Positions 50,874-59,301 of a stretch of 64,000 nucleotides of DNA are shown here, in pieces. Positions within the stretch are counted from its first letter, which is position 1. Every line of letters starts with the position of its first letter. The DNA comes from Alphaproteobacteria bacterium (GTDB taxonomy: Bacteria; Pseudomonadota; Alphaproteobacteria; Bin95): the NCBI GenBank assembly GCA_963665325.3, contig OZ224045.1:1600001-1664000 (forward strand). The letters run 5' to 3'. Made by a program: the position numbers and the translations under genes. Under the pieces are notes generated by a model. It saw only the letters and a list, made by a program, of their open reading frames with translations, searched no databases and had not been told where the DNA came from.

Positions 50874-51437
50874 TCAGAGCGGCTCTATTTCCCTTGCCTG
50901 GAGCCCGCGCGGCACGCTTTCGGCTCGGACGAAGACGCGTTGTCCCGGCAGCAGATCGGTCATGCCCGAGCGAAACAGGACGCTGGAATGAACGAACACC
51001 TCGGGGCCGCCATCGTCCGGCACGACAAAGCCGAACCCTCTCGCCGGATCGTAGAACTTGACCGAGCCTGGCGCCTCCACGTCTGCCCGCGGCGGATCAT
51101 CAACCAGCGGGCCCGGGTGCCGGGCTTCGAACGAGCGGTTGCCGACCGCCGGGCCCCCAAATCGGAGTCCGGTGCGAGCGGACCCGGCCGCCGGCGGGTC
51201 AACCGAGAGGATCCTCGACGCCTGGGGTCCCCTGTCGCCCGGTGCGATCTCGCAGGTTACCGCCGCGCCCTGGGGCTGCGTGTCATATCCCGATGCCTGT
51301 ACGGCAGTCAGGTGGCAGAACAGGTCGGCAGAGCCGTCCTCGGGTTCCAGGAAGCCGTAACCCTTTGCCGGATCGTACAATTTGACCGTCGCCGAAATGT
51401 GCGTGCCGGTGCCGGATTCTGAAAACCGGTTCGTCAT
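50874..51437 (-). CDS. Tandem cold-shock domain protein
   Basis: Two CSDs: VKLYDPAKGYGFL...LFCH and VKFYDPARGFGFV...VFVH. Confidence 0.92.
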   Translation of the reverse strand: MTNRFSESGTGTHISATVKLYDPAKGYGFLEPEDGSADLFCHLTAVQASGYDTQPQGAAVTCEIAPGDRGPQASRILSVDPPAAGSARTGLRFGGPAVGNRSFEARHPGPLVDDPPRADVEAPGSVKFYDPARGFGFVVPDDGGPEVFVHSSVLFRSGMTDLLPGQRVFVRAESVPRGLQAREIEPL

Positions 51438-51581
51438 CCCGAATAACTTTCCCTCATACGGTTATGTTCGTATGGATTGCCTCTTCTACCGTCCATCCCG
51501 TGGGCGGTGAAGGTCCCCGGGCAAGCGCCGGTGGACGGGGTTCATCGATACTCGAGACCGGTTGTCCAGACGGCGAGGGAG

Positions 51582-52475
51582 ATGACGATGCGTGTTGCCG
51601 GGTATTGGTCGCTGGCATTTCTGATGCTGTTGCTGGCGCCGGCGGCAGCGGTCGCCGGCGACCTGCACATTGCGGCCTGGAACCTGGAGCATCTGGACGA
51701 TACCGACGGCGAAGGGTGTGTCGGGCGCAGCAGCACCGACTACGCCGCGCTCGCAAGACAGATTGAGGAACTGGGCGCCGATATCGTCGCTTTCCAGGAG
51801 GTGGAGGACGAGGCGGCCGCGCGCCGCGTGTTCCCGGCCTCTGAATGGCACATCGAGATGTCCGGGCGCCCGCCGATGGAGCCCAGCCGGGCCTGCTGGG
51901 GCAAGCCTGAGGCGCGTCTCGGGCATCTGGCGACGGGGTTCGCGATCCGGAAGGGCATTCGTTATCGGCGCAACGCCGATCTGAAGGTGCTGGGAGGCGA
52001 GGACGCTTTCCAGCGCTGGGGTGTCGACATCGCAGCGGGCGCCGGTGGGGAGGAGCTGCGCCTGCTGTCCGTGCATCTCAAGACCGGCTGTTGGGGCAGG
52101 AAACAGGACCGGGACAACAGAAGCAGGAAAGCCTGCGCGACGCTCCGGGGCCAGATCGAGAGCCTCAGGGCCTGGGTCGACGCCCGCCGGGCCGAGGAGG
52201 CAGCTTTCGTCATCCTGGGCGACTTCAACCGCCGTCTGGCATTGCCGGAGGACTGGGCCTGGCGTCTGTTGTCTCCGCCATCGGCGCCGCTTCTGCTGCT
52301 GACCGAAGGTGTGCCGTTCCGTTGCGACCCACGTTTCCCGGCCTTCATCGACCACATTGTGGAAGGCGGCGGTGCGGAGGCGATGCGGGTGGCGGGCTCG
52401 TTCCGGGAATGGCCGCGCGGGGGGCCGCACCCGGATCACTGCGCCGTGTCTGCGGTCTTCAGGGTAGGACCATAG
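51582..52475 (+). CDS. Exported endonuclease/exonuclease/phosphatase (EEP) family protein
   Basis: Signal peptide, AWNLEH, AFQEV, SVHLK, LGDFNR, IDHI, PDHC. Confidence 0.9.
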   Translation: MTMRVAGYWSLAFLMLLLAPAAAVAGDLHIAAWNLEHLDDTDGEGCVGRSSTDYAALARQIEELGADIVAFQEVEDEAAARRVFPASEWHIEMSGRPPMEPSRACWGKPEARLGHLATGFAIRKGIRYRRNADLKVLGGEDAFQRWGVDIAAGAGGEELRLLSVHLKTGCWGRKQDRDNRSRKACATLRGQIESLRAWVDARRAEEAAFVILGDFNRRLALPEDWAWRLLSPPSAPLLLLTEGVPFRCDPRFPAFIDHIVEGGGAEAMRVAGSFREWPRGGPHPDHCAVSAVFRVGP

Positions 52476-52839
52476 GGCACTGCCGGCGAGTTGCGACAGG
52501 CTGAACTGCTGCCCGACCTGCGGCTTCCTGTGACTGCTGAGAGTGGCGGTCAGCTCTCCAGCGGGAGATGGCTGTCTCCTGTTCCGGCTCCCGGTCGAGC
52601 TCAATCGACACGCGGGGCGCAGACGACCGCACATCCCGGGATGGTTCCGGACGCCTGCGGCGCGGTGCCCGGGGCTCGATACCTGCCCGGCAACTACCGA
52701 GAAGGCAGGCTCCGGGTCCGATGCATCGCTCTTGCGGCCATCGCCCGTTGGCGCTCGCGCCGCATACGGTCTTCAGTTGGCGCTGCCAGCATCTGGAGCC
52801 GGCAAAGCTACTGCCGACGCCAGCGGATACCGAAACGTC

Positions 52840-53230
52840 TCCCTCCAGGCGGATCCGAATTGCGCTTGCGGACGGCTCGCGTGTGACGGTCGACCGGGAC
52901 GTGGACGCGGCGGTGCTGTCGCAGGTGCTCGGGGTTCTGGAGCGGCGATGATCCCGGTTCCGAGCGGGGCGCGGGTCTGGCTCGCAACCGGAGTAGCGGA
53001 GTGGAGCTGGGCAGCCGACTAGGCATGATAATCGCCTCCGGGATGGGCGGCCGGAATCCAAGACTGCTGTGGAGGCGCACGGCGTTGTAATGGCGCCCCT
53101 GACGGTGCATGCTAGACCGCTATAAGCGAGTTGACTCAGGATTAGATTCTTGGGTTTCACGGGTAAGGATTTGTCGGAATCATGAGACGTCGACGACTCG
53201 TAGAGACGCAATCGGCCCGTGAGGGAGTGG
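52840..53230. mobile_element. Mosaic of IS remnants (IS66 tnpA end/tnpB start; IS3-family transposase C-terminus; possible IS5-like left end)
   Basis: RIRIALADGSRVTVDRDVDAAVL..VL* overlapping MIPVPSGARVWLATG (IS66); minus-strand HYNAVRLHSSLGFRPP (IS3); CTAGACCG...MRRRRLVETQ weakly IS5-like. Confidence 0.6.
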
Positions 53231-53367
53231 GCCCCAAATTTCCGACATCGTCATCTGGGAATGCTCTAACGGGCTACGCAAGGTCATGACCGTCCAGATA
53301 ATGAGACAAAGGCAGTGCCTATATTCGTTGATGTAAGTCAAATGGTTGCGAGTCAGAGGTTATACAA

Positions 53368-53802
53368 ATGGTAAACAAATTGTTTAAGTTATTGTCGCAA
53401 GTAAAGTCAGTCACTGGAGATGATTTTTCGGGCTTAGGATTGATCATTTGTGACACACCGGAATTCCTCCCTATTGTGCCAATACGCCCCGTGAGCTCTC
53501 CGCCAAGTAAGTTCAATCTAATTGATTCACTCGTCAGTATCTCGACCTTGGACAGTGAATATCATGATGGCTTCCATATACTATCATCCGACTGGACATT
53601 GAGCCGAATATCTCAATACTTTTTGCCACCGATTGTCAATGGTGTAATTGTTGATCGGAGTAAGACCTTTGGTGGTCGCTATATTGCAGCACTGTTCGGA
53701 TCGGCAATACCAAACGTGCGACTGTCAGGAATAGCAAGTAAAGGGTTCGGAATCGCGATCTTTAAGGACGGCGCAGAAACATATTTCCAGGATGCACTAT
53801 GA
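53368..53802 (+). CDS. Minimal stand-alone DisA_N/DAC (diadenylate cyclase)-like protein
   Basis: G.G.II, YHDGFHI (canonical HDGA), GGRYIAALFGS (canonical GTRHRAA..S), IAS..G I.IFKDG C-terminal DAC pattern; GAGG RBS; AT-rich. Confidence 0.75.
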   Translation: MVNKLFKLLSQVKSVTGDDFSGLGLIICDTPEFLPIVPIRPVSSPPSKFNLIDSLVSISTLDSEYHDGFHILSSDWTLSRISQYFLPPIVNGVIVDRSKTFGGRYIAALFGSAIPNVRLSGIASKGFGIAIFKDGAETYFQDAL

Positions 53803-54401
53803 TTGGACTTGTACCAATAGGCCGATTTATTGCGCTTGTCGCGGTGTTGTATGCTGTATTAATTTCTGGTTTTGTAGCCGCAGCAGTCGAGTTCGGAGAT
53901 GATTCATGGTCGATTTGGATCAATTTCACATATATATTCTCCGGGGCCACATTACTCCAAATTCTGCTCGCGCTGTCGTTTTGTTATGGTTGGAGGCACT
54001 TGTGGCGATGGTTTCCGACTCTAAATCATTTACTATACCCGGACCTGGGCGGAGAGTGGGACATCAGAATTCATTGGCAAAGCTCTACGGACGATGGGAC
54101 TATCGATGCAAGAGCAGTGGTCCGGCAGAATTTCTTGCAAGTAAGTATGGAGGTATTGTCTGAGAATTCTGATTCAAAGACTCTGATCGCACAGCCCAGA
54201 AAAGATCCGGAATCTGGAACCCCATTCTTGTACTATGTATACCAAGTAAATCCAAAATTCATTGGACCAGAACACAACGAACCTTACTTTGGGGCTGCAA
54301 TCTTGAAGTATTCTCAAGTTGAAGAAGGGGGAAATTTGAGTGGAAATTATTGGACAACTAGAGCGACTAGAGGCCACTTTAACCTAAGGCGTCAAACATA
54401 G
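53799..54401 (+). CDS. 2TM plus SMODS-associated beta-barrel membrane effector (Cap15/S-2TMbeta family)
   Basis: Two N-terminal TM helices, W..LW, PDLGGEW, VRQ, SDS, LYYVY, GAAIL, LSGNYWT.R.TRG; ATGA-coupled to the DAC gene. Confidence 0.85.
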   Translation: MIGLVPIGRFIALVAVLYAVLISGFVAAAVEFGDDSWSIWINFTYIFSGATLLQILLALSFCYGWRHLWRWFPTLNHLLYPDLGGEWDIRIHWQSSTDDGTIDARAVVRQNFLQVSMEVLSENSDSKTLIAQPRKDPESGTPFLYYVYQVNPKFIGPEHNEPYFGAAILKYSQVEEGGNLSGNYWTTRATRGHFNLRRQT

Positions 54402-54435
54402 AAATGTTGGACAGGCGGTATTCGCTGACCGCGGC

Positions 54436-55302
54436 TTACCTGCGGAAACGCGGTGTCCAGCGCTCCTCCATATCCTCATCTTCCTCGTCAGGTTCATCGT
54501 CGGCAAATGCGCTCGAAGAAAGTACCGTTAGCGTCTTGCCGTATCGTCCGAGGCCAATCGTCTCCTCGGTGCCCGGCAGGGAACGAGGACCGCCGAACCA
54601 GTCACGAAGATCGACGTCCACATGGCTGCGGTGGGCTCGAAGGATATTTTCGGGATTACGATTGAAGAGAGCGGTCTCAATGCCGGCCGGCAACGGCTGC
54701 CCCTTGCGGAGCCATTCAAGGCCGCTGATGTCCTGAAGGCTCTTGGACATGAAGCAGTAGTCGACCGAATCGCCGGTGCTTACTACGACGGCGACCGGCA
54801 CCGAGGCTGTTTCGGCATATCGGATCGCCGTGGCGGTCAGCGAGGTGCAGCACTCGCGCGCCATGCCTTCGACCGCTTCGAGCCCGTCGCCGAAGCGACG
54901 GACTCTTCGGGAAAAGTGGGGATCGGGCATCAGCAAGCCCGCGGCAAAATGATCGGCTTCCAGTTCGAAGCGATCGCCGGAAACGAAGCCGGCTTCGGAT
55001 GCATGAACTCCATCGCCGGACGGGAAGATGTGATCGACATGGCCGTCCAGCACGTAGTGACCGATCTCGTGGGCAATACTGAACCTCTGAAAGCCTTCAT
55101 TGTCGATGTGGGTGGCGTACATGATCCCGAACATGTCCTGATGGCGGACCAGCATGCCGGAAACACCACCCGCCGTGTCCGGCTTGGGCTCCACGACGAT
55201 GTCGAGGCTCTCGGCGATCATGATCGGATCGACGGGGAGGCTGGCGATGCCCCGGTCGGCGAGGAACTTCTCTGCCTTACGCTTTGCCATTTGGTATCGC
55301 AT
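54436..55302 (-). CDS. ImmA/IrrE-family Zn metallopeptidase (CapP-like)
   Basis: QRFSIAHEIGH (HExxH), E..AD.FAA.LLMP, TSLTA.AIRY. Confidence 0.9.
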   Translation of the reverse strand: MRYQMAKRKAEKFLADRGIASLPVDPIMIAESLDIVVEPKPDTAGGVSGMLVRHQDMFGIMYATHIDNEGFQRFSIAHEIGHYVLDGHVDHIFPSGDGVHASEAGFVSGDRFELEADHFAAGLLMPDPHFSRRVRRFGDGLEAVEGMARECCTSLTATAIRYAETASVPVAVVVSTGDSVDYCFMSKSLQDISGLEWLRKGQPLPAGIETALFNRNPENILRAHRSHVDVDLRDWFGGPRSLPGTEETIGLGRYGKTLTVLSSSAFADDEPDEEDEDMEERWTPRFRR

Positions 55303-55314
55303 AGGCCTGACCGT

Positions 55315-55671
55315 TCACGCACCCTCTCCGCCACGCTTCTTGCGGTCGGAGAGCATCTTCATGAAAGAGTGGGCGAGATCGCGATCCGAGGAAGACAGGT
55401 TCTTGAAGTCCCGGTAGAGCGGATCGGCGTCGGCATAGGCTTCCGGATCGTCAACACGGCCCAGCAAGTAATCGGTCGTCACCTCCAGGGCGTTGGCGAG
55501 TCGGCGCAGGTTCTCGAAGGAAGGCTTACGGGAGCTGGCTTCGAAATGCGAGATCGAGGACGGGGGCAGGCCCGACTTCTCCGCCAAGGCTGACTGGTCC
55601 AATCCCCGCATCTCACGCGCGATCCTCAGCCTTTGAGGGAAGGCATCCGAGGGGATCGGATCCTCGGACAT
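55315..55671 (-). CDS. XRE-family HTH repressor (CapH-like)
   Basis: RL..AR..RGLDQ..LA...GL..SSISHFE...RKPS..NL..LA.AL.VTTDYLLG; divergent from the CD-NTase. Confidence 0.9.
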   Translation of the reverse strand: MSEDPIPSDAFPQRLRIAREMRGLDQSALAEKSGLPPSSISHFEASSRKPSFENLRRLANALEVTTDYLLGRVDDPEAYADADPLYRDFKNLSSSDRDLAHSFMKMLSDRKKRGGEGA

Positions 55672-55737
55672 GTCGATTTCACGATCTGTCACTTGACGTT
55701 CTCGCCATCCAAGTCCATGTATATTCCGACACAGTTT

Positions 55738-55757
55738 GCATGGCGAAGTCGCCATGC
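55738..55757. promoter_or_regulatory. Perfect inverted repeat, candidate operator for the XRE repressor
   Basis: GCATGGCGA-AG-TCGCCATGC; extra half-site TCGCCAT at 55702-55708. Confidence 0.55.
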
Positions 55758-55822
55758 GCAACTCATGGTGCTGCCCGGCGTTTAGGAGCAGGACTGGACC
55801 GGGTGCGGAGAAGGATAGCGGA

Positions 55823-57082
55823 ATGACAAGCAAGAACTATCCACTGCAACAGCCACTAGCCGATCCGGTGGACCTGTTGCTTGCCGACGTAGCGATCAGG
55901 GTGCAGCTGTCCCGGACCAATTACAGCAAGGCAATCGAACGGTACGAGACGATTAATGCCTGGATCGAACGCGACGGAAGTCCGCTGAAGGACCGGATTG
56001 TGCGGTTCTACCCCCAGGGTTCGATGGCGATCGGGGCGACGATCGCTTCGAAGCTGCGGACCGACGAGTTCGATATCGATGTCGTCGCACAGCTTGGTCT
56101 GCCGCTGAGCGTGTTGCCGAAAGACGCCTTGGATCTTTTGTTCCAGGCAATCCGAGGGGAACCGGGGTCGCGCTATTACCGGATGGTGGAACGTCGGACG
56201 CGGTGTGTCACGGTGCACTACGGAAACGATATGCATGTCGACGTGACGCCGGTGCTGCGCATGCTCGGTACGGCGGCGAGGCAAAGCCTGATCTTCCATC
56301 ACAATGAAGAATCGCCGCAGGATCCGGGGGATCGGTTGATCGCGAATCCCTACGGATTTGCTGAGTGGTTCAAGCTGAACACGCCGAACGACCAAGCCTT
56401 CGCCGAAATCTTCGAACAACGGGCTTGGGAGTACGAGGAAGCGTTGCGCATCCTTGCGGAGAAGGCCGAGAGCGAGCCTGTGCCTTCGCAGGAACCGGCG
56501 TTCCGGAAATCCAAGGCGGTCATCGTGCTGCAGCTTCTGAAGCGCTGGCGCAACGTTCAGTATGACGCGCGGTTGGGGCGCAAGCCTCCGTCGATCATGT
56601 TCGCCAAGCTGATCGCGGATGCGGCGAACCATACGGACGGGCTCTCGAAAGAACTGCTCCACCAGGCTCGGCACATGCTGGACGAGTTCCGCCGTTGCCA
56701 GGAGCTGGGGCGCCTCGTCCACATCGCCAACCCCGTTTGCGCCGAAGATGTTCTGACCGACCGGTGGCCAGGTAGCCTGCGTGACCAGGCAATCTTCATT
56801 GGCGACCTCGAGCACTTGGTCCGGCAGATCGAGCGCCTGATCGAGGGGTGCGACTTGGACGAAATGCAGAAAATAATGGCCGAGCTGTTCGGCGAGGCGC
56901 CGACGGGAGAAGCCTTCCGGAGCTTCAACGAGAAGGTCGGCGGCATGGTGCGGGAAGGCCAGAGTCGGCATCGCACCGGCACGGGCGGGCTGGTCTTGCC
57001 GGGTGCTGCTGCGGTCGTCGCGACGCCGTCTTTGGCGACGCCCAGGCACACGTTCTTCGGTGCGGACGACGACGACCGATGA
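55823..57082 (+). CDS. cGAS/DncV-like nucleotidyltransferase (CD-NTase, clade G-like), CBASS cyclase
   Basis: PQGSMAIGATI...EFDIDVV, MHVDVTP, ANPYGFAEWF, QLLKRWRN, PPSI, NPV..ED.L.DRW, C-terminal HTFFG. Confidence 0.92.
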   Translation: MTSKNYPLQQPLADPVDLLLADVAIRVQLSRTNYSKAIERYETINAWIERDGSPLKDRIVRFYPQGSMAIGATIASKLRTDEFDIDVVAQLGLPLSVLPKDALDLLFQAIRGEPGSRYYRMVERRTRCVTVHYGNDMHVDVTPVLRMLGTAARQSLIFHHNEESPQDPGDRLIANPYGFAEWFKLNTPNDQAFAEIFEQRAWEYEEALRILAEKAESEPVPSQEPAFRKSKAVIVLQLLKRWRNVQYDARLGRKPPSIMFAKLIADAANHTDGLSKELLHQARHMLDEFRRCQELGRLVHIANPVCAEDVLTDRWPGSLRDQAIFIGDLEHLVRQIERLIEGCDLDEMQKIMAELFGEAPTGEAFRSFNEKVGGMVREGQSRHRTGTGGLVLPGAAAVVATPSLATPRHTFFGADDDDR

Positions 57083-57537
57083 CCCTGTCGATACGGGCAC
57101 AGATGGACCGGATGGGCCGAGCCTGGCCGGATTTCAGGGTTCTTGGCGCGACGGATTGGTTGGCGACCTGGGAAGGGTCGCTCCGGCCGCTGGCCATGCG
57201 CTACAGGGTGCGCGTATCGATGTGTTTCGGCAGGCAATTGAGCAATGCGGTGATCAGGAGTTATGCGCCCCGGATCACGGTGGTCTCTCCAATCCTGCGC
57301 CGGCGACCGGAACAGCCGGAGCAGCCGATCCCGCACATCTACCCGAACAGGTGTTCTCCCGACCGCCCGATCCTGTGCGTCTACCTTCCTGGGGCGGGGG
57401 AATGGGATTGGCGCGATGCGGTGGCCGACACGACGATCCCTTGGACCATCGACTGGCTGGCCTGTTACGAGGGCTGGCTCGCGACGGGAGAGTGGGCGGG
57501 CGGAGGCGTTCATCCGACAAAGGAGCGGGCGGCGTGA
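57079..57537 (+). CDS. Stand-alone prokaryotic E2 (ubiquitin-conjugating-like) CBASS accessory protein
   Basis: W.G.L.P...YRVRV, P.I.V.SP, PHIY, LCVY (catalytic Cys), EW, TIPW..DWL..YE.WL.TG.W.GGG.H; ATGA overlap. Confidence 0.82.
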   Translation: MTLSIRAQMDRMGRAWPDFRVLGATDWLATWEGSLRPLAMRYRVRVSMCFGRQLSNAVIRSYAPRITVVSPILRRRPEQPEQPIPHIYPNRCSPDRPILCVYLPGAGEWDWRDAVADTTIPWTIDWLACYEGWLATGEWAGGGVHPTKERAA

Positions 57538-58625
57538 TGCCGGCGCCGGTGGGCGAAGGGTCGCCGAGACGGTCGTCGGGGGCGCTTGATCGTCGCCGTG
57601 TTCCGCTTCCTTGGCCGGAGGATCGGCCGTTTCGCATTCTTTCAATCGACGGAGGCGGCATTCGGGGTATCTATCCCGCCGCTTTCCTGGCGGAGCTCGA
57701 ACGGCGCTACCTTGGCGGGGAATCCGTGGCGCGGCACTTCGATCTCATCGCGGGGACTTCGACCGGCGGGATCCTCGCCGTGGGCCTGGGAGCGGGCATC
57801 ACGGCCGCAGAGTTACGCGACCTCTATGTCAATCGTGGATGCGAAATCTTCCCGCCGATCAGGCCGAGAGCGCTGGAGGGGATCCTCCGACGGTGCCGGA
57901 GCGCATGCCAAGTGTTCAAGTACCGATACAACCGAAGAGCGTTGGAAGGAATTCTGAAGGAGACGCTGGGCGAACGGAAGTTCGGAGAGGCAGGGACACG
58001 CCTCTGCATTCCGTCCTTCGATGGTCGGTATGGGGAGGTTTACATCTTCAAGACACCTCATCACCCGGATTTCCGGAAAGATGGGCGTGAGTTCATGACG
58101 AAGGTGGCTGAAGCCACATCGGCGGCTCCGACATTTTTTCGGCCGCTCGAAGACGGCGGCTACACCTTCGTCGACGGCGGGGTATGGGCGAACAATCCGG
58201 TAATGATCGGCTTAGTCGACGCGTTGACCTGCTTTGCGGTCAAGGCGGAGCAGGTTCGGATTTTGAGCGTTGGATGTGGCGACGATCCCTACGTTGTCGA
58301 CCGACGCAAGATTGTGGGAGGCGGCATATGGGCGTGGCGGGACGTGATCTTCGCCGCAATGCGGCTTCAGTCGCAGAACGCCCTCGGGCAGGCGGGGCTC
58401 CTTATCGGCGCCGACAGGATCGTCCGAATCGATGCGCCGACAACCGAGGCGAAGATTGAGATGGACGACTGGAGACGCGCGGTGGACGAACTGCCCGGCG
58501 CGGCGGAAACGGCGACTGACGAAATGGGTCCCGAAGTGGCTGCAAGGTTTCTGCGCGAACCTGCGGTACCGTACAGGCCGATTAGAACAACAGACATCCA
58601 AATGGCCCCGGTTCAGAGCAGATGA
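57537..58625 (+). CDS. capV: Patatin-like phospholipase, CBASS effector (CapV-like)
   Basis: ILSIDGGGIRG, GTSTG, IFKTPHH, ATSAAPTFF, DGGVWANNP; TGATG coupling. Confidence 0.9.
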   Translation: MPAPVGEGSPRRSSGALDRRRVPLPWPEDRPFRILSIDGGGIRGIYPAAFLAELERRYLGGESVARHFDLIAGTSTGGILAVGLGAGITAAELRDLYVNRGCEIFPPIRPRALEGILRRCRSACQVFKYRYNRRALEGILKETLGERKFGEAGTRLCIPSFDGRYGEVYIFKTPHHPDFRKDGREFMTKVAEATSAAPTFFRPLEDGGYTFVDGGVWANNPVMIGLVDALTCFAVKAEQVRILSVGCGDDPYVVDRRKIVGGGIWAWRDVIFAAMRLQSQNALGQAGLLIGADRIVRIDAPTTEAKIEMDDWRRAVDELPGAAETATDEMGPEVAARFLREPAVPYRPIRTTDIQMAPVQSR

Positions 58626-59113: not shown

Positions 59114-59301
59114 CGACTCCGTCCGGCGGGAAACCGGCGATGCCGGCCGGTGGCGCGCACCGTGTTCAATCGCTGCTGCTCAACCAGGCGTCACCGGGAC
59201 GACCGATCCCGGGGGCAGACTTCGTCAGGCATTCCGACAGCCCCGTCGGCAACAAGTGTGCGTGTGCGCGCCGATTGGAAAACCGGCAACACCGCTGCAT
59301 C

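Follow-up and report, generated by a model that had tools for sequence, protein, structure and literature searches.

Identification of a two-gene AT-rich operon

The window analysed here is a stretch of 64,000 nucleotides from an alphaproteobacterial genome (GCA_963665325.3, contig OZ224045.1, positions 1,600,001 to 1,664,000), and all coordinates without a locus label refer to it. Positions 53368 to 54401 carry two genes that very probably constitute a panS-panE operon of a guard system described in two preprints, where it is named Panoptoo (Ragucci, Haley & Kranzusch, bioRxiv, 11 Aug 2026, 10.64898/2026.08.10.743927) and PanDA (Nabhani et al., bioRxiv, 11 Aug 2026, PMC13640721). The first gene, panS (53368..53802, + strand), is an open reading frame (ORF) with an ATG start that codes for a protein of 144 residues, a predicted minimal diadenylate cyclase (DAC) that would synthesise a decoy signal. 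The second gene, panE (53799..54401, + strand), is also an ORF with an ATG start and codes for a protein of 200 residues, a predicted S-2TM-beta effector made of two transmembrane (TM) helices and a Cap15-type receptor barrel for cyclic dinucleotides. The stop codon of panS and the start codon of panE overlap in an ATGA sequence (53799..53802, + strand), and the two genes are translationally coupled.

The operon differs from its surroundings in base composition. GC content drops from about 0.63-0.69 to about 0.45-0.52 in an AT-rich leader 5' of panS (53100..53367, + strand), in which the promoter was not located, and it is 0.437 in panS and 0.444 in panE, compared with 0.616 in the adjacent cyclic-oligonucleotide-based antiphage signalling system (CBASS, see below) and 0.676 in the window outside 53100-58625. 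An initial annotation, which had been made from the letters of this DNA, described an AT-rich operon of two ATGA-overlapping genes in a GC-rich genome, and the coordinates, the overlap and the difference in GC content (0.44 vs 0.68) were all confirmed. Additionally, an AGAGG motif is found 8-12 nt ahead of the panS ATG, and a scan of the locus for promoters and terminators detected nothing exceeding shuffled sequences.

PanS is a stand-alone enzyme with a DAC fold

A sequence search of the PDB with PanS retrieved 37jy_A, the 'Panoptoo PanS synthase' (147 aa), at E = 7e-34 and without gaps over residues 2-137; 56 of the 136 positions are identical (about 41%, as counted on this alignment), and a profile of the PanS family reached the same entry at E = 3.2e-47. 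The family profile also reached the canonical DACs of the PDB, with DacM 7dg0 as the best (6.1e-5) and CdaA entries next, and the HDG and G-R-x-x-A-A positions were aligned. In agreement with this, the AlphaFold2 (AF2) model of PanS, with a predicted local distance difference test score (pLDDT) of 96.1, consists of a single DAC domain and nothing extra. Foldseek found 70 matches for this model at E <= 0.001, starting from E = 1.8e-6, to DacM, CdaA/DacA and DisA, and among the matches listed the only entry of another kind was 2fb5, a structural-genomics hypothetical membrane-spanning protein. PanS itself had no match in Pfam (E <= 0.1), PADLOC (E <= 0.1) or NCBIfam (E <= 0.01); these direct family scans gave no link to DACs, which was provided only by the sequence search of the PDB, by the family profile and by the fold. 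Of the 69 PanS family members, 21 do match Pfam DAC individually (E <= 0.01). The small family comprises 196 proteins at E <= 0.01 among 220 candidates, the closest of them 66% identical to PanS, and 262 relatives were found at E <= 0.001 among 1.84 billion representatives.

The residues that are invariant in the 69-sequence PanS alignment (G22, G24, D67, G68, F69, G102, R104 and G135), as well as those conserved in at least 90% of it (F20, P35, H66, H70, A108, S112 and F132), are all present in the window protein, whose motifs are F20, H66-D67-G68-F69-H70, G102-G103-R104, A107 and S112. Residues D68, G69, G103, R105, F22, F70 and S113 of EcPanS, together with its HDGFH motif, have their counterparts here in F20, H66-D67-G68-F69-H70, G102, R104 and S112, according to a mapping made by motif, without the EcPanS sequence. 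PanS is a stand-alone DAC-fold enzyme that carries both the catalytic Asp (D67, in HDGFH) and the catalytic Arg (R104, in GGR).

PanE has the architecture of a Cap15-type effector

PanE matched Pfam Cap15_CD_rec over residues 80-198 (1.2e-15; 58.4 bits, with a cut-off of 31.2) and 17 models of PADLOC named '2TM Effector', the best of them at 3.7e-26. Its AF2 model (pLDDT 88.7) starts with two helices (H7-32 and H39-71), which are followed by eight strands, and Kyte-Doolittle windows of 1.6 or more are confined to the first ~65 residues. Foldseek gave only three matches at E <= 0.001, all of them Cap15 receptor structures (7n34, 7n35), and the superposition on 7n34 Cap15 had an E value of 4.8e-6, a target-normalised TM-score of 0.86 and a root-mean-square deviation of 2.1 Å. 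Furthermore, PanE contains the family-conserved residues G85, W87, S126, Y146, G182, Y184, T186 and G192. No PDB sequence match at E <= 1 and no NCBIfam match was obtained for it. PanE is, by prediction, a protein in which two TM helices precede a dinucleotide-binding barrel of the Cap15 type.

The initial annotation had proposed both architectures, a DAC-fold protein of 144 residues without any further domain and a Cap15-like protein of 200 residues with two TM helices and a beta-barrel, and it had named a fold comparison as the way to check them. Both stand: AF2 and Foldseek recovered the DAC fold for PanS (DacM, CdaA, DisA) and the Cap15 fold for PanE, and for the latter the match to 7n34 is joined by that to Pfam Cap15_CD_rec and by the two hydrophobic helices at the N-terminus.

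The PanS-PanE pairing is conserved in related loci

To survey related loci, one genome per species was scanned with the PanS alignment, which gave 41 loci, and their neighbours were identified by iterated hidden Markov model searches of all their ORFs from 50 aa upwards. Two peptide patterns, GGRYxAALFG and [YF]HDGFH[IV][VLI]S, served to find the loci, which are therefore limited to closer relatives. A PanE homologue lies directly 3' of PanS and on the same strand in 41/41 loci. The two genes are separated by the same -4 overlap in 25 loci, by a gap of 0 in nine and by other spacings (-49 to +146 nt) in seven, all of these gaps being approximate since each ORF was taken to begin at its first possible start codon. 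All the relatives examined keep the pairing, as the initial annotation had expected when it suggested a gene-neighbourhood check, and its idea that a DAC produces the signal for a Cap15-like effector is sustained by the two folds and by this conserved co-occurrence. In addition, a CD-NTase homologue was found within the 10 kb flanks of at least 28/41 loci, a count that is a lower bound because the flanks are cut in several loci, and no CD-NTase was found in the flanks of the other 13.

Several of these loci carry variants of the two-gene arrangement. In L027 (10426-12645) and L032 (10423-12651), PanS is followed by long effectors of ~740 aa with Cap15_CD_rec and PNP_UDP_1 domains, which replace the 2TM type and match the rare barrel-PNP (beta-PNP) form of Nabhani et al., an effector that adjoins <5% of systems according to that preprint (PMC13640721). 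The effector after PanS in L038 (10421-12019) has 532 aa, and Pfam detected only the barrel in it, with no PNP match. In three Sphingomonas loci (L009:9225-11040, L011:9225-11040 and L017:9210-11031), a second S-2TM-beta gene is located directly 5' of panS on the same strand, with its end overlapping the longest panS ORF call, so that three genes (2TM-beta, PanS, PanE) seem to stand in a row, with a divergent CD-NTase next to them; the extra 2TM-beta gene could represent that CBASS's Cap15, joined to the transcription unit of PanSE. The PanE homologues of L036 (10432-11292) and L039 (10426-11070), from Zymomonas mobilis and Sphingomonas yunnanensis, have no N-terminal two-TM region and start almost at the barrel. 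A Cap15_CD_rec match (6.1e-7) falls a little short of the cut-off, the flanks of both loci yielded no CD-NTase, and the L036 protein has a hydrophobic stretch in a C-terminal extension that suggests a permuted topology. Lastly, L003 (6801-7447) and L041 (10089-11039) resemble decayed copies, with PanE split in two ORFs in both of them and PanS truncated in L041.

A CBASS with its own effector adjoins the operon

A group of genes that the initial annotation did not mention, a complete CBASS, starts 34 bp 3' of panE. The first of them, capP (54436..55302, - strand), is convergent with panE and codes for the CBASS regulator protease (PADLOC capP 2.2e-63; Pfam Peptidase_M78 1.3e-12). It is followed by capH (55315..55671, - strand), coding for the helix-turn-helix repressor of the system (PADLOC capH 1.3e-25, residues 63-165 of a 172-aa ORF; Pfam HTH_3 2e-15); this ORF is open to 55833, and its likely start at 55671 was placed from the profile match, with Met first in the translation from that position. 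On the other strand, a CdnG-like CD-NTase (55823..57082, + strand; ORF open from 55736) matched PADLOC Cyclase PDLC00800 (2.5e-153) and Pfam SMODS (5.5e-10). Its closest PDB entry is 7ljn (5.3e-69), with SmCdnG at 1.6e-16, and 7LJN is identified as BdCdnG of an E2-CBASS in PMC12948482. The E2 gene that comes next (57079..57537, + strand) is of the type II-short (E2-only) CBASS (PADLOC E2 PDLC00877 7.6e-46, residues 78-227 of the ORF 56848..57537), and its ATG overlaps the CD-NTase stop codon in an ATGA sequence (CCGATGACCC at 57076-57085). The last gene codes for a patatin-like phospholipase, the CBASS's own effector (57600..58625, + strand; ORF open from 57003, with a start placed near 57600), and was recognised by NCBIfam NF041079, CBASS cGAMP-activated phospholipase (246.6 bits, cut-off 200), by PADLOC Phospholipase effector (9e-115) and by Pfam Patatin (5.6e-24). 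Judged by these profile matches, the neighbour is a complete CapH/CapP-regulated E2-type CBASS with an effector of its own, and the AT-rich pair is a separate unit.

The composition of this neighbour is not that of most surveyed loci. A patatin homologue is present in 16/41 loci, CapH and CapP homologues in 1/41 (L041), and an E2 like that of the window in 0/41 when the latter was used for iterative searching; different accessory genes may serve the other CBASS neighbours. One locus, from Dyella dinghuensis (L005:11028-18032), has two CD-NTase and patatin pairs within 8 kb 3' of PanSE.

The proximity of the two systems raises the possibility that PanE serves the adjacent CBASS as a second effector that reads the CdnG product, with PanS tuning or priming it and the pair not being autonomous. 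The 34 bp between panE and capP and the frequency of CD-NTases in the flanks of the survey agree with this, as does the fact that 73.4% of 617 S2TM-beta effectors are CBASS Cap15 proteins (Ragucci et al., 10.64898/2026.08.10.743927). However, panE is not co-operonic with the CD-NTase, since it converges on capP and both capP and capH intervene, and the GC content of panSE and that of the CBASS are about 17 points apart. Moreover, homologous two-gene operons alone defended or responded to the phage sponge Acb4 in E. coli, as reported in both preprints (10.64898/2026.08.10.743927; PMC13640721). We consider this arrangement very unlikely, and PanE was rejected as an effector serving the neighbouring CBASS, which owns a patatin and an E2, with 13/41 loci having no CD-NTase nearby.

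With regard to the remaining surroundings, the divergent region between capH (55671) and the CD-NTase (55823), at 55672-55822 (151 bp), is the expected CapH operator region, and the longest ORF calls overlap in it. On the 5' side of the operon, the tail of an integrase-core (rve_3) ORF at 52808-53110 (- strand) gave a weak match (E = 0.0039, below cut-off), and the ORFs 52459-53211 (- strand), 52543-53022 (+ strand) and 52568-52951 (+ strand) had no Pfam match. The overlapping ORFs at 52459-53110 together with the rve_3 tail resemble insertion-sequence debris at the border of an island, and these upstream ORFs may be remnants of the IS66 type, although no search supports this family. The left flank of the island (50874-52475) codes for a two-domain cold-shock protein (CSD x2; PADLOC CSD_V 1.7e-15) and for a protein of the endonuclease/exonuclease/phosphatase (EEP) family with a likely signal or TM segment. 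Urease genes start near 59300.

Distribution and horizontal acquisition

Canonical DACs are scarce around this system. Pfam DAC had no match (E <= 0.01) in the window's own genome, which is 100% complete, and a control search matched 11/14 reference genomes; it was found in 2/151 sampled genomes of the host's class. The statement of the initial annotation that canonical DACs are rare in this class was thus borne out in the sample as well as in the genome itself. Because the host has no housekeeping DAC, the signal made at this locus would be private to the system. In this regard, Nabhani et al. report no PanS co-resident with a non-immune DAC in one genome, which is a regularity and not a definition (PMC13640721), and a GC content of PanS systems about 10% lower than that of their hosts is given in the preprints (10.64898/2026.08.10.743927; PMC13640721).

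PanS was found in 0/30 relatives searched, including 0/16 of the same genus. Homologues are present on six plasmid records, four of which are conjugative, and a search of 50,697 phage records yielded none. The cassette has been acquired by horizontal transfer.

Such mobility also fits an addiction module, with PanE as the toxin and PanS as a small-molecule antitoxin, in which the pair would stabilise a mobile island and defence would be incidental. The logic of the pair is indeed toxin-antitoxin-like, and low GC content, the absence from the 30 relatives and the homologues on conjugative plasmids are all in line with this. This reading is compatible with a guard system, and an addiction module to which defence is incidental seems to us highly improbable.

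Proposed function of the operon and points against it

The properties of the homologues reported in the two preprints (10.64898/2026.08.10.743927; PMC13640721) bear directly on the function of this pair. There, a DAC-only PanS of ~150 aa is operonic with an S-2TM-beta PanE; PanE alone is toxic and permeabilises membranes, and its toxicity is relieved when wild-type PanS is supplied, whereas the D68A and R105A mutants give no relief. Acb4, a phage sponge, can trigger the system by itself, and escaper phages are mutated in acb4. In addition, about 50% of the systems lie no more than 10 genes from a CBASS, which generally has a 2TM-beta or patatin effector together with ubiquitin-like (Ub-like) machinery. 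With respect to the signal, in one of the two preprints PanS co-purifies with 3'3'-cUA in 9/11 homologues and with c-di-AMP in 2/11, whereas in the other EcPanE was found to bind c-di-AMP (7.7 µM) but not cUA.

All the Panoptoo/PanDA features that can be examined in silico were found at our locus, and we propose, with a probability of about 0.88, that the pair is the panS-panE operon of a Panoptoo/PanDA guard system, horizontally acquired and located beside an E2-type CBASS. By analogy with the homologues, PanS dimers would constitutively make 3'3'-cUA and/or 3'3'-c-di-AMP, and the dinucleotide would bind to the PanE barrel and keep PanE inactive. A phage cyclic-nucleotide sponge (Acb4, perhaps Acb2) that disarms CBASS would also drain the decoy, which a phage nuclease could likewise remove with release of PanE, and free PanE would then permeabilise the membrane and abort the infection. 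The operon may in this way guard the neighbouring CdnG/E2/patatin CBASS. A constitutive decoy of this kind, with an effector that is freed by phage sponges, was one of the two modes considered in the initial annotation and is the one that has been experimentally shown for homologues (Ragucci et al., 10.64898/2026.08.10.743927; Nabhani et al., PMC13640721).

The other mode is positive signalling, in which PanS would be silent until infection and its dinucleotide would then activate PanE, as in CBASS. PanE has the same barrel as the CBASS Cap15 effectors, which are activated by their ligand, and this is what speaks for it. In contrast, PanS has no sensor or regulatory domain in its 144 aa, only a single DAC fold, and the data on homologues describe PanS proteins that co-purify with their product and PanE proteins that are toxic alone and rescued by active PanS (10.64898/2026.08.10.743927; PMC13640721). 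The chance that the locus works by positive signalling is therefore very slim.

Several observations weigh against the assignment to a Panoptoo/PanDA guard. Both sources for the mechanism are preprints. The signal at this locus is not predictable because they disagree on the physiological ligand, and the guard relation to this particular neighbour can only be inferred because a single locus of the 41 pairs PanSE with a CapH/CapP-type CBASS. At the level of sequence, Pfam DAC (PF02457) is unmatched by the window PanS at E <= 0.1, and its motifs are DGF in place of the canonical DGA and GRY in place of RHR. An atypical residue, Leu86, occupies the base-contacting lid position that corresponds to S90 of RePanS (see below). 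Lastly, a sigma-70 scan gave zero sites upstream of panS, and the two sites that it gave inside panS are at shuffle level.

The locus is an ordinary, uncharacterised member of the known Panoptoo/PanDA system, and the system is already in print; this very PanS may even be included in the lists and trees of PanS homologues of the preprints. The initial annotation had warned of a possible recent report of this pairing, and the two bioRxiv preprints of August 2026 bore this out; the novelty that it attributed to the locus falls accordingly, since both the pairing and the decoy logic are published. What the locus adds is one more natural example of a decoy guard built on a DAC, and its host is GC-rich and has no c-di-AMP housekeeping. 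Furthermore, the survey independently reproduces the regularities of the preprints, namely the obligatory PanS-PanE pairing, the adjacency to CBASS, the low GC content and the lack of a co-resident DAC. The system and its decoy logic were recoverable from a reading of the raw sequence, and the locus opens no new question.

An atypical residue in the lid of PanS

Residue 86 of PanS is Leu, while in the family alignment this position is Ser in 46/69 and Ala in 15/69 sequences and Leu in the window protein alone. In the alignment of the loci it is Ser in 37/42, and Leu is again found only in the window's own PanS. In the crystal structure of RePanS, the corresponding S90 moves towards the pocket for uracil (Ragucci et al., 10.64898/2026.08.10.743927), and a Leu at the residue that turns to this pocket makes a change of specificity possible. 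Nabhani et al. associate small residues at 103 and 107 with room for uracil (PMC13640721), and the window PanS has both G103 and A107, which are found in 36/69 and 43/69 sequences of the alignment, respectively. We consider it unlikely that the window PanS is a natural specificity variant, for instance one restricted to c-di-AMP or one with a different dinucleotide as its product, to which PanE would have co-adapted. If true, it would bear on the disagreement between the preprints on whether cUA or c-di-AMP is the working signal.

A unique residue could also indicate a decaying or inactive copy, silenced by L86 or by a lack of expression. L86 is a singleton in the family, no promoter was detected, and decay is seen elsewhere, in L003 and L041, where PanE is split, and in the truncated PanS of L041. 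Nevertheless, both ORFs of the window are intact and of full length and keep all the catalytic and conserved residues, and a dead PanS with an intact PanE should be lethal. Additionally, activity is reported not to require S85 of VcPanS, which belongs to this lid region too (Ragucci et al., Figure 4j legend, 10.64898/2026.08.10.743927). All of this makes a dead copy extremely improbable.

Comparison with known systems

The closest parallel is the Panoptoo/PanDA system, with which the locus shares a DAC-only synthase of ~150 aa that has the HDGFH and GGR motifs, a gene for an S-2TM-beta effector directly 3' of it, a GC content below that of the host, an adjoining CBASS with patatin and Ub-like components, the lack of a housekeeping DAC and an occurrence in Pseudomonadota. 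It differs from the crystallised PanS of R. etli, to which the window PanS is about 41% identical, in having Leu86 instead of the usual Ser of the lid, and from most Panoptoo/PanDA loci in that its CBASS neighbour is CapH/CapP-regulated (1/41 surveyed).

The second parallel is Panoptes (OptS mCpol and OptE 2TM-beta), reportedly described in Nature in 2025 as a CBASS-adjacent two-gene guard in which a constitutive decoy nucleotide holds the effector off. Our locus has the same decoy-guard layout of two genes with a 2TM-beta effector beside a CBASS, but the synthase of Panoptes is a minimal CRISPR polymerase (mCpol / Cas10 palm) and that of our locus has a DAC fold. PanSE was not assigned to Panoptes, given that PanS folds as a DAC and not as an mCpol. 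Ragucci et al. (10.64898/2026.08.10.743927) cite 2'3'-c-di-AMP or cA3 as the signal of Panoptes.

The two proteins also have relatives outside guard systems. PanE resembles the CBASS effector Cap15 (PDB 7n34) in its architecture and in its barrel fold; unlike Cap15, which is activated on infection by a ligand that a CD-NTase makes, PanE is paired with a DAC whose ligand would be inhibitory. PanS, in turn, has the fold of the housekeeping enzymes DisA, CdaA and DacM (Pfam PF02457) and their catalytic positions, Asp-Gly and Gly-x-Arg. It differs from them in having no TM, helix-hairpin-helix or regulatory domain, a longer lid loop and a sequence below Pfam detection, and its role would probably be immune, as opposed to the osmotic or DNA-damage signalling of these enzymes.

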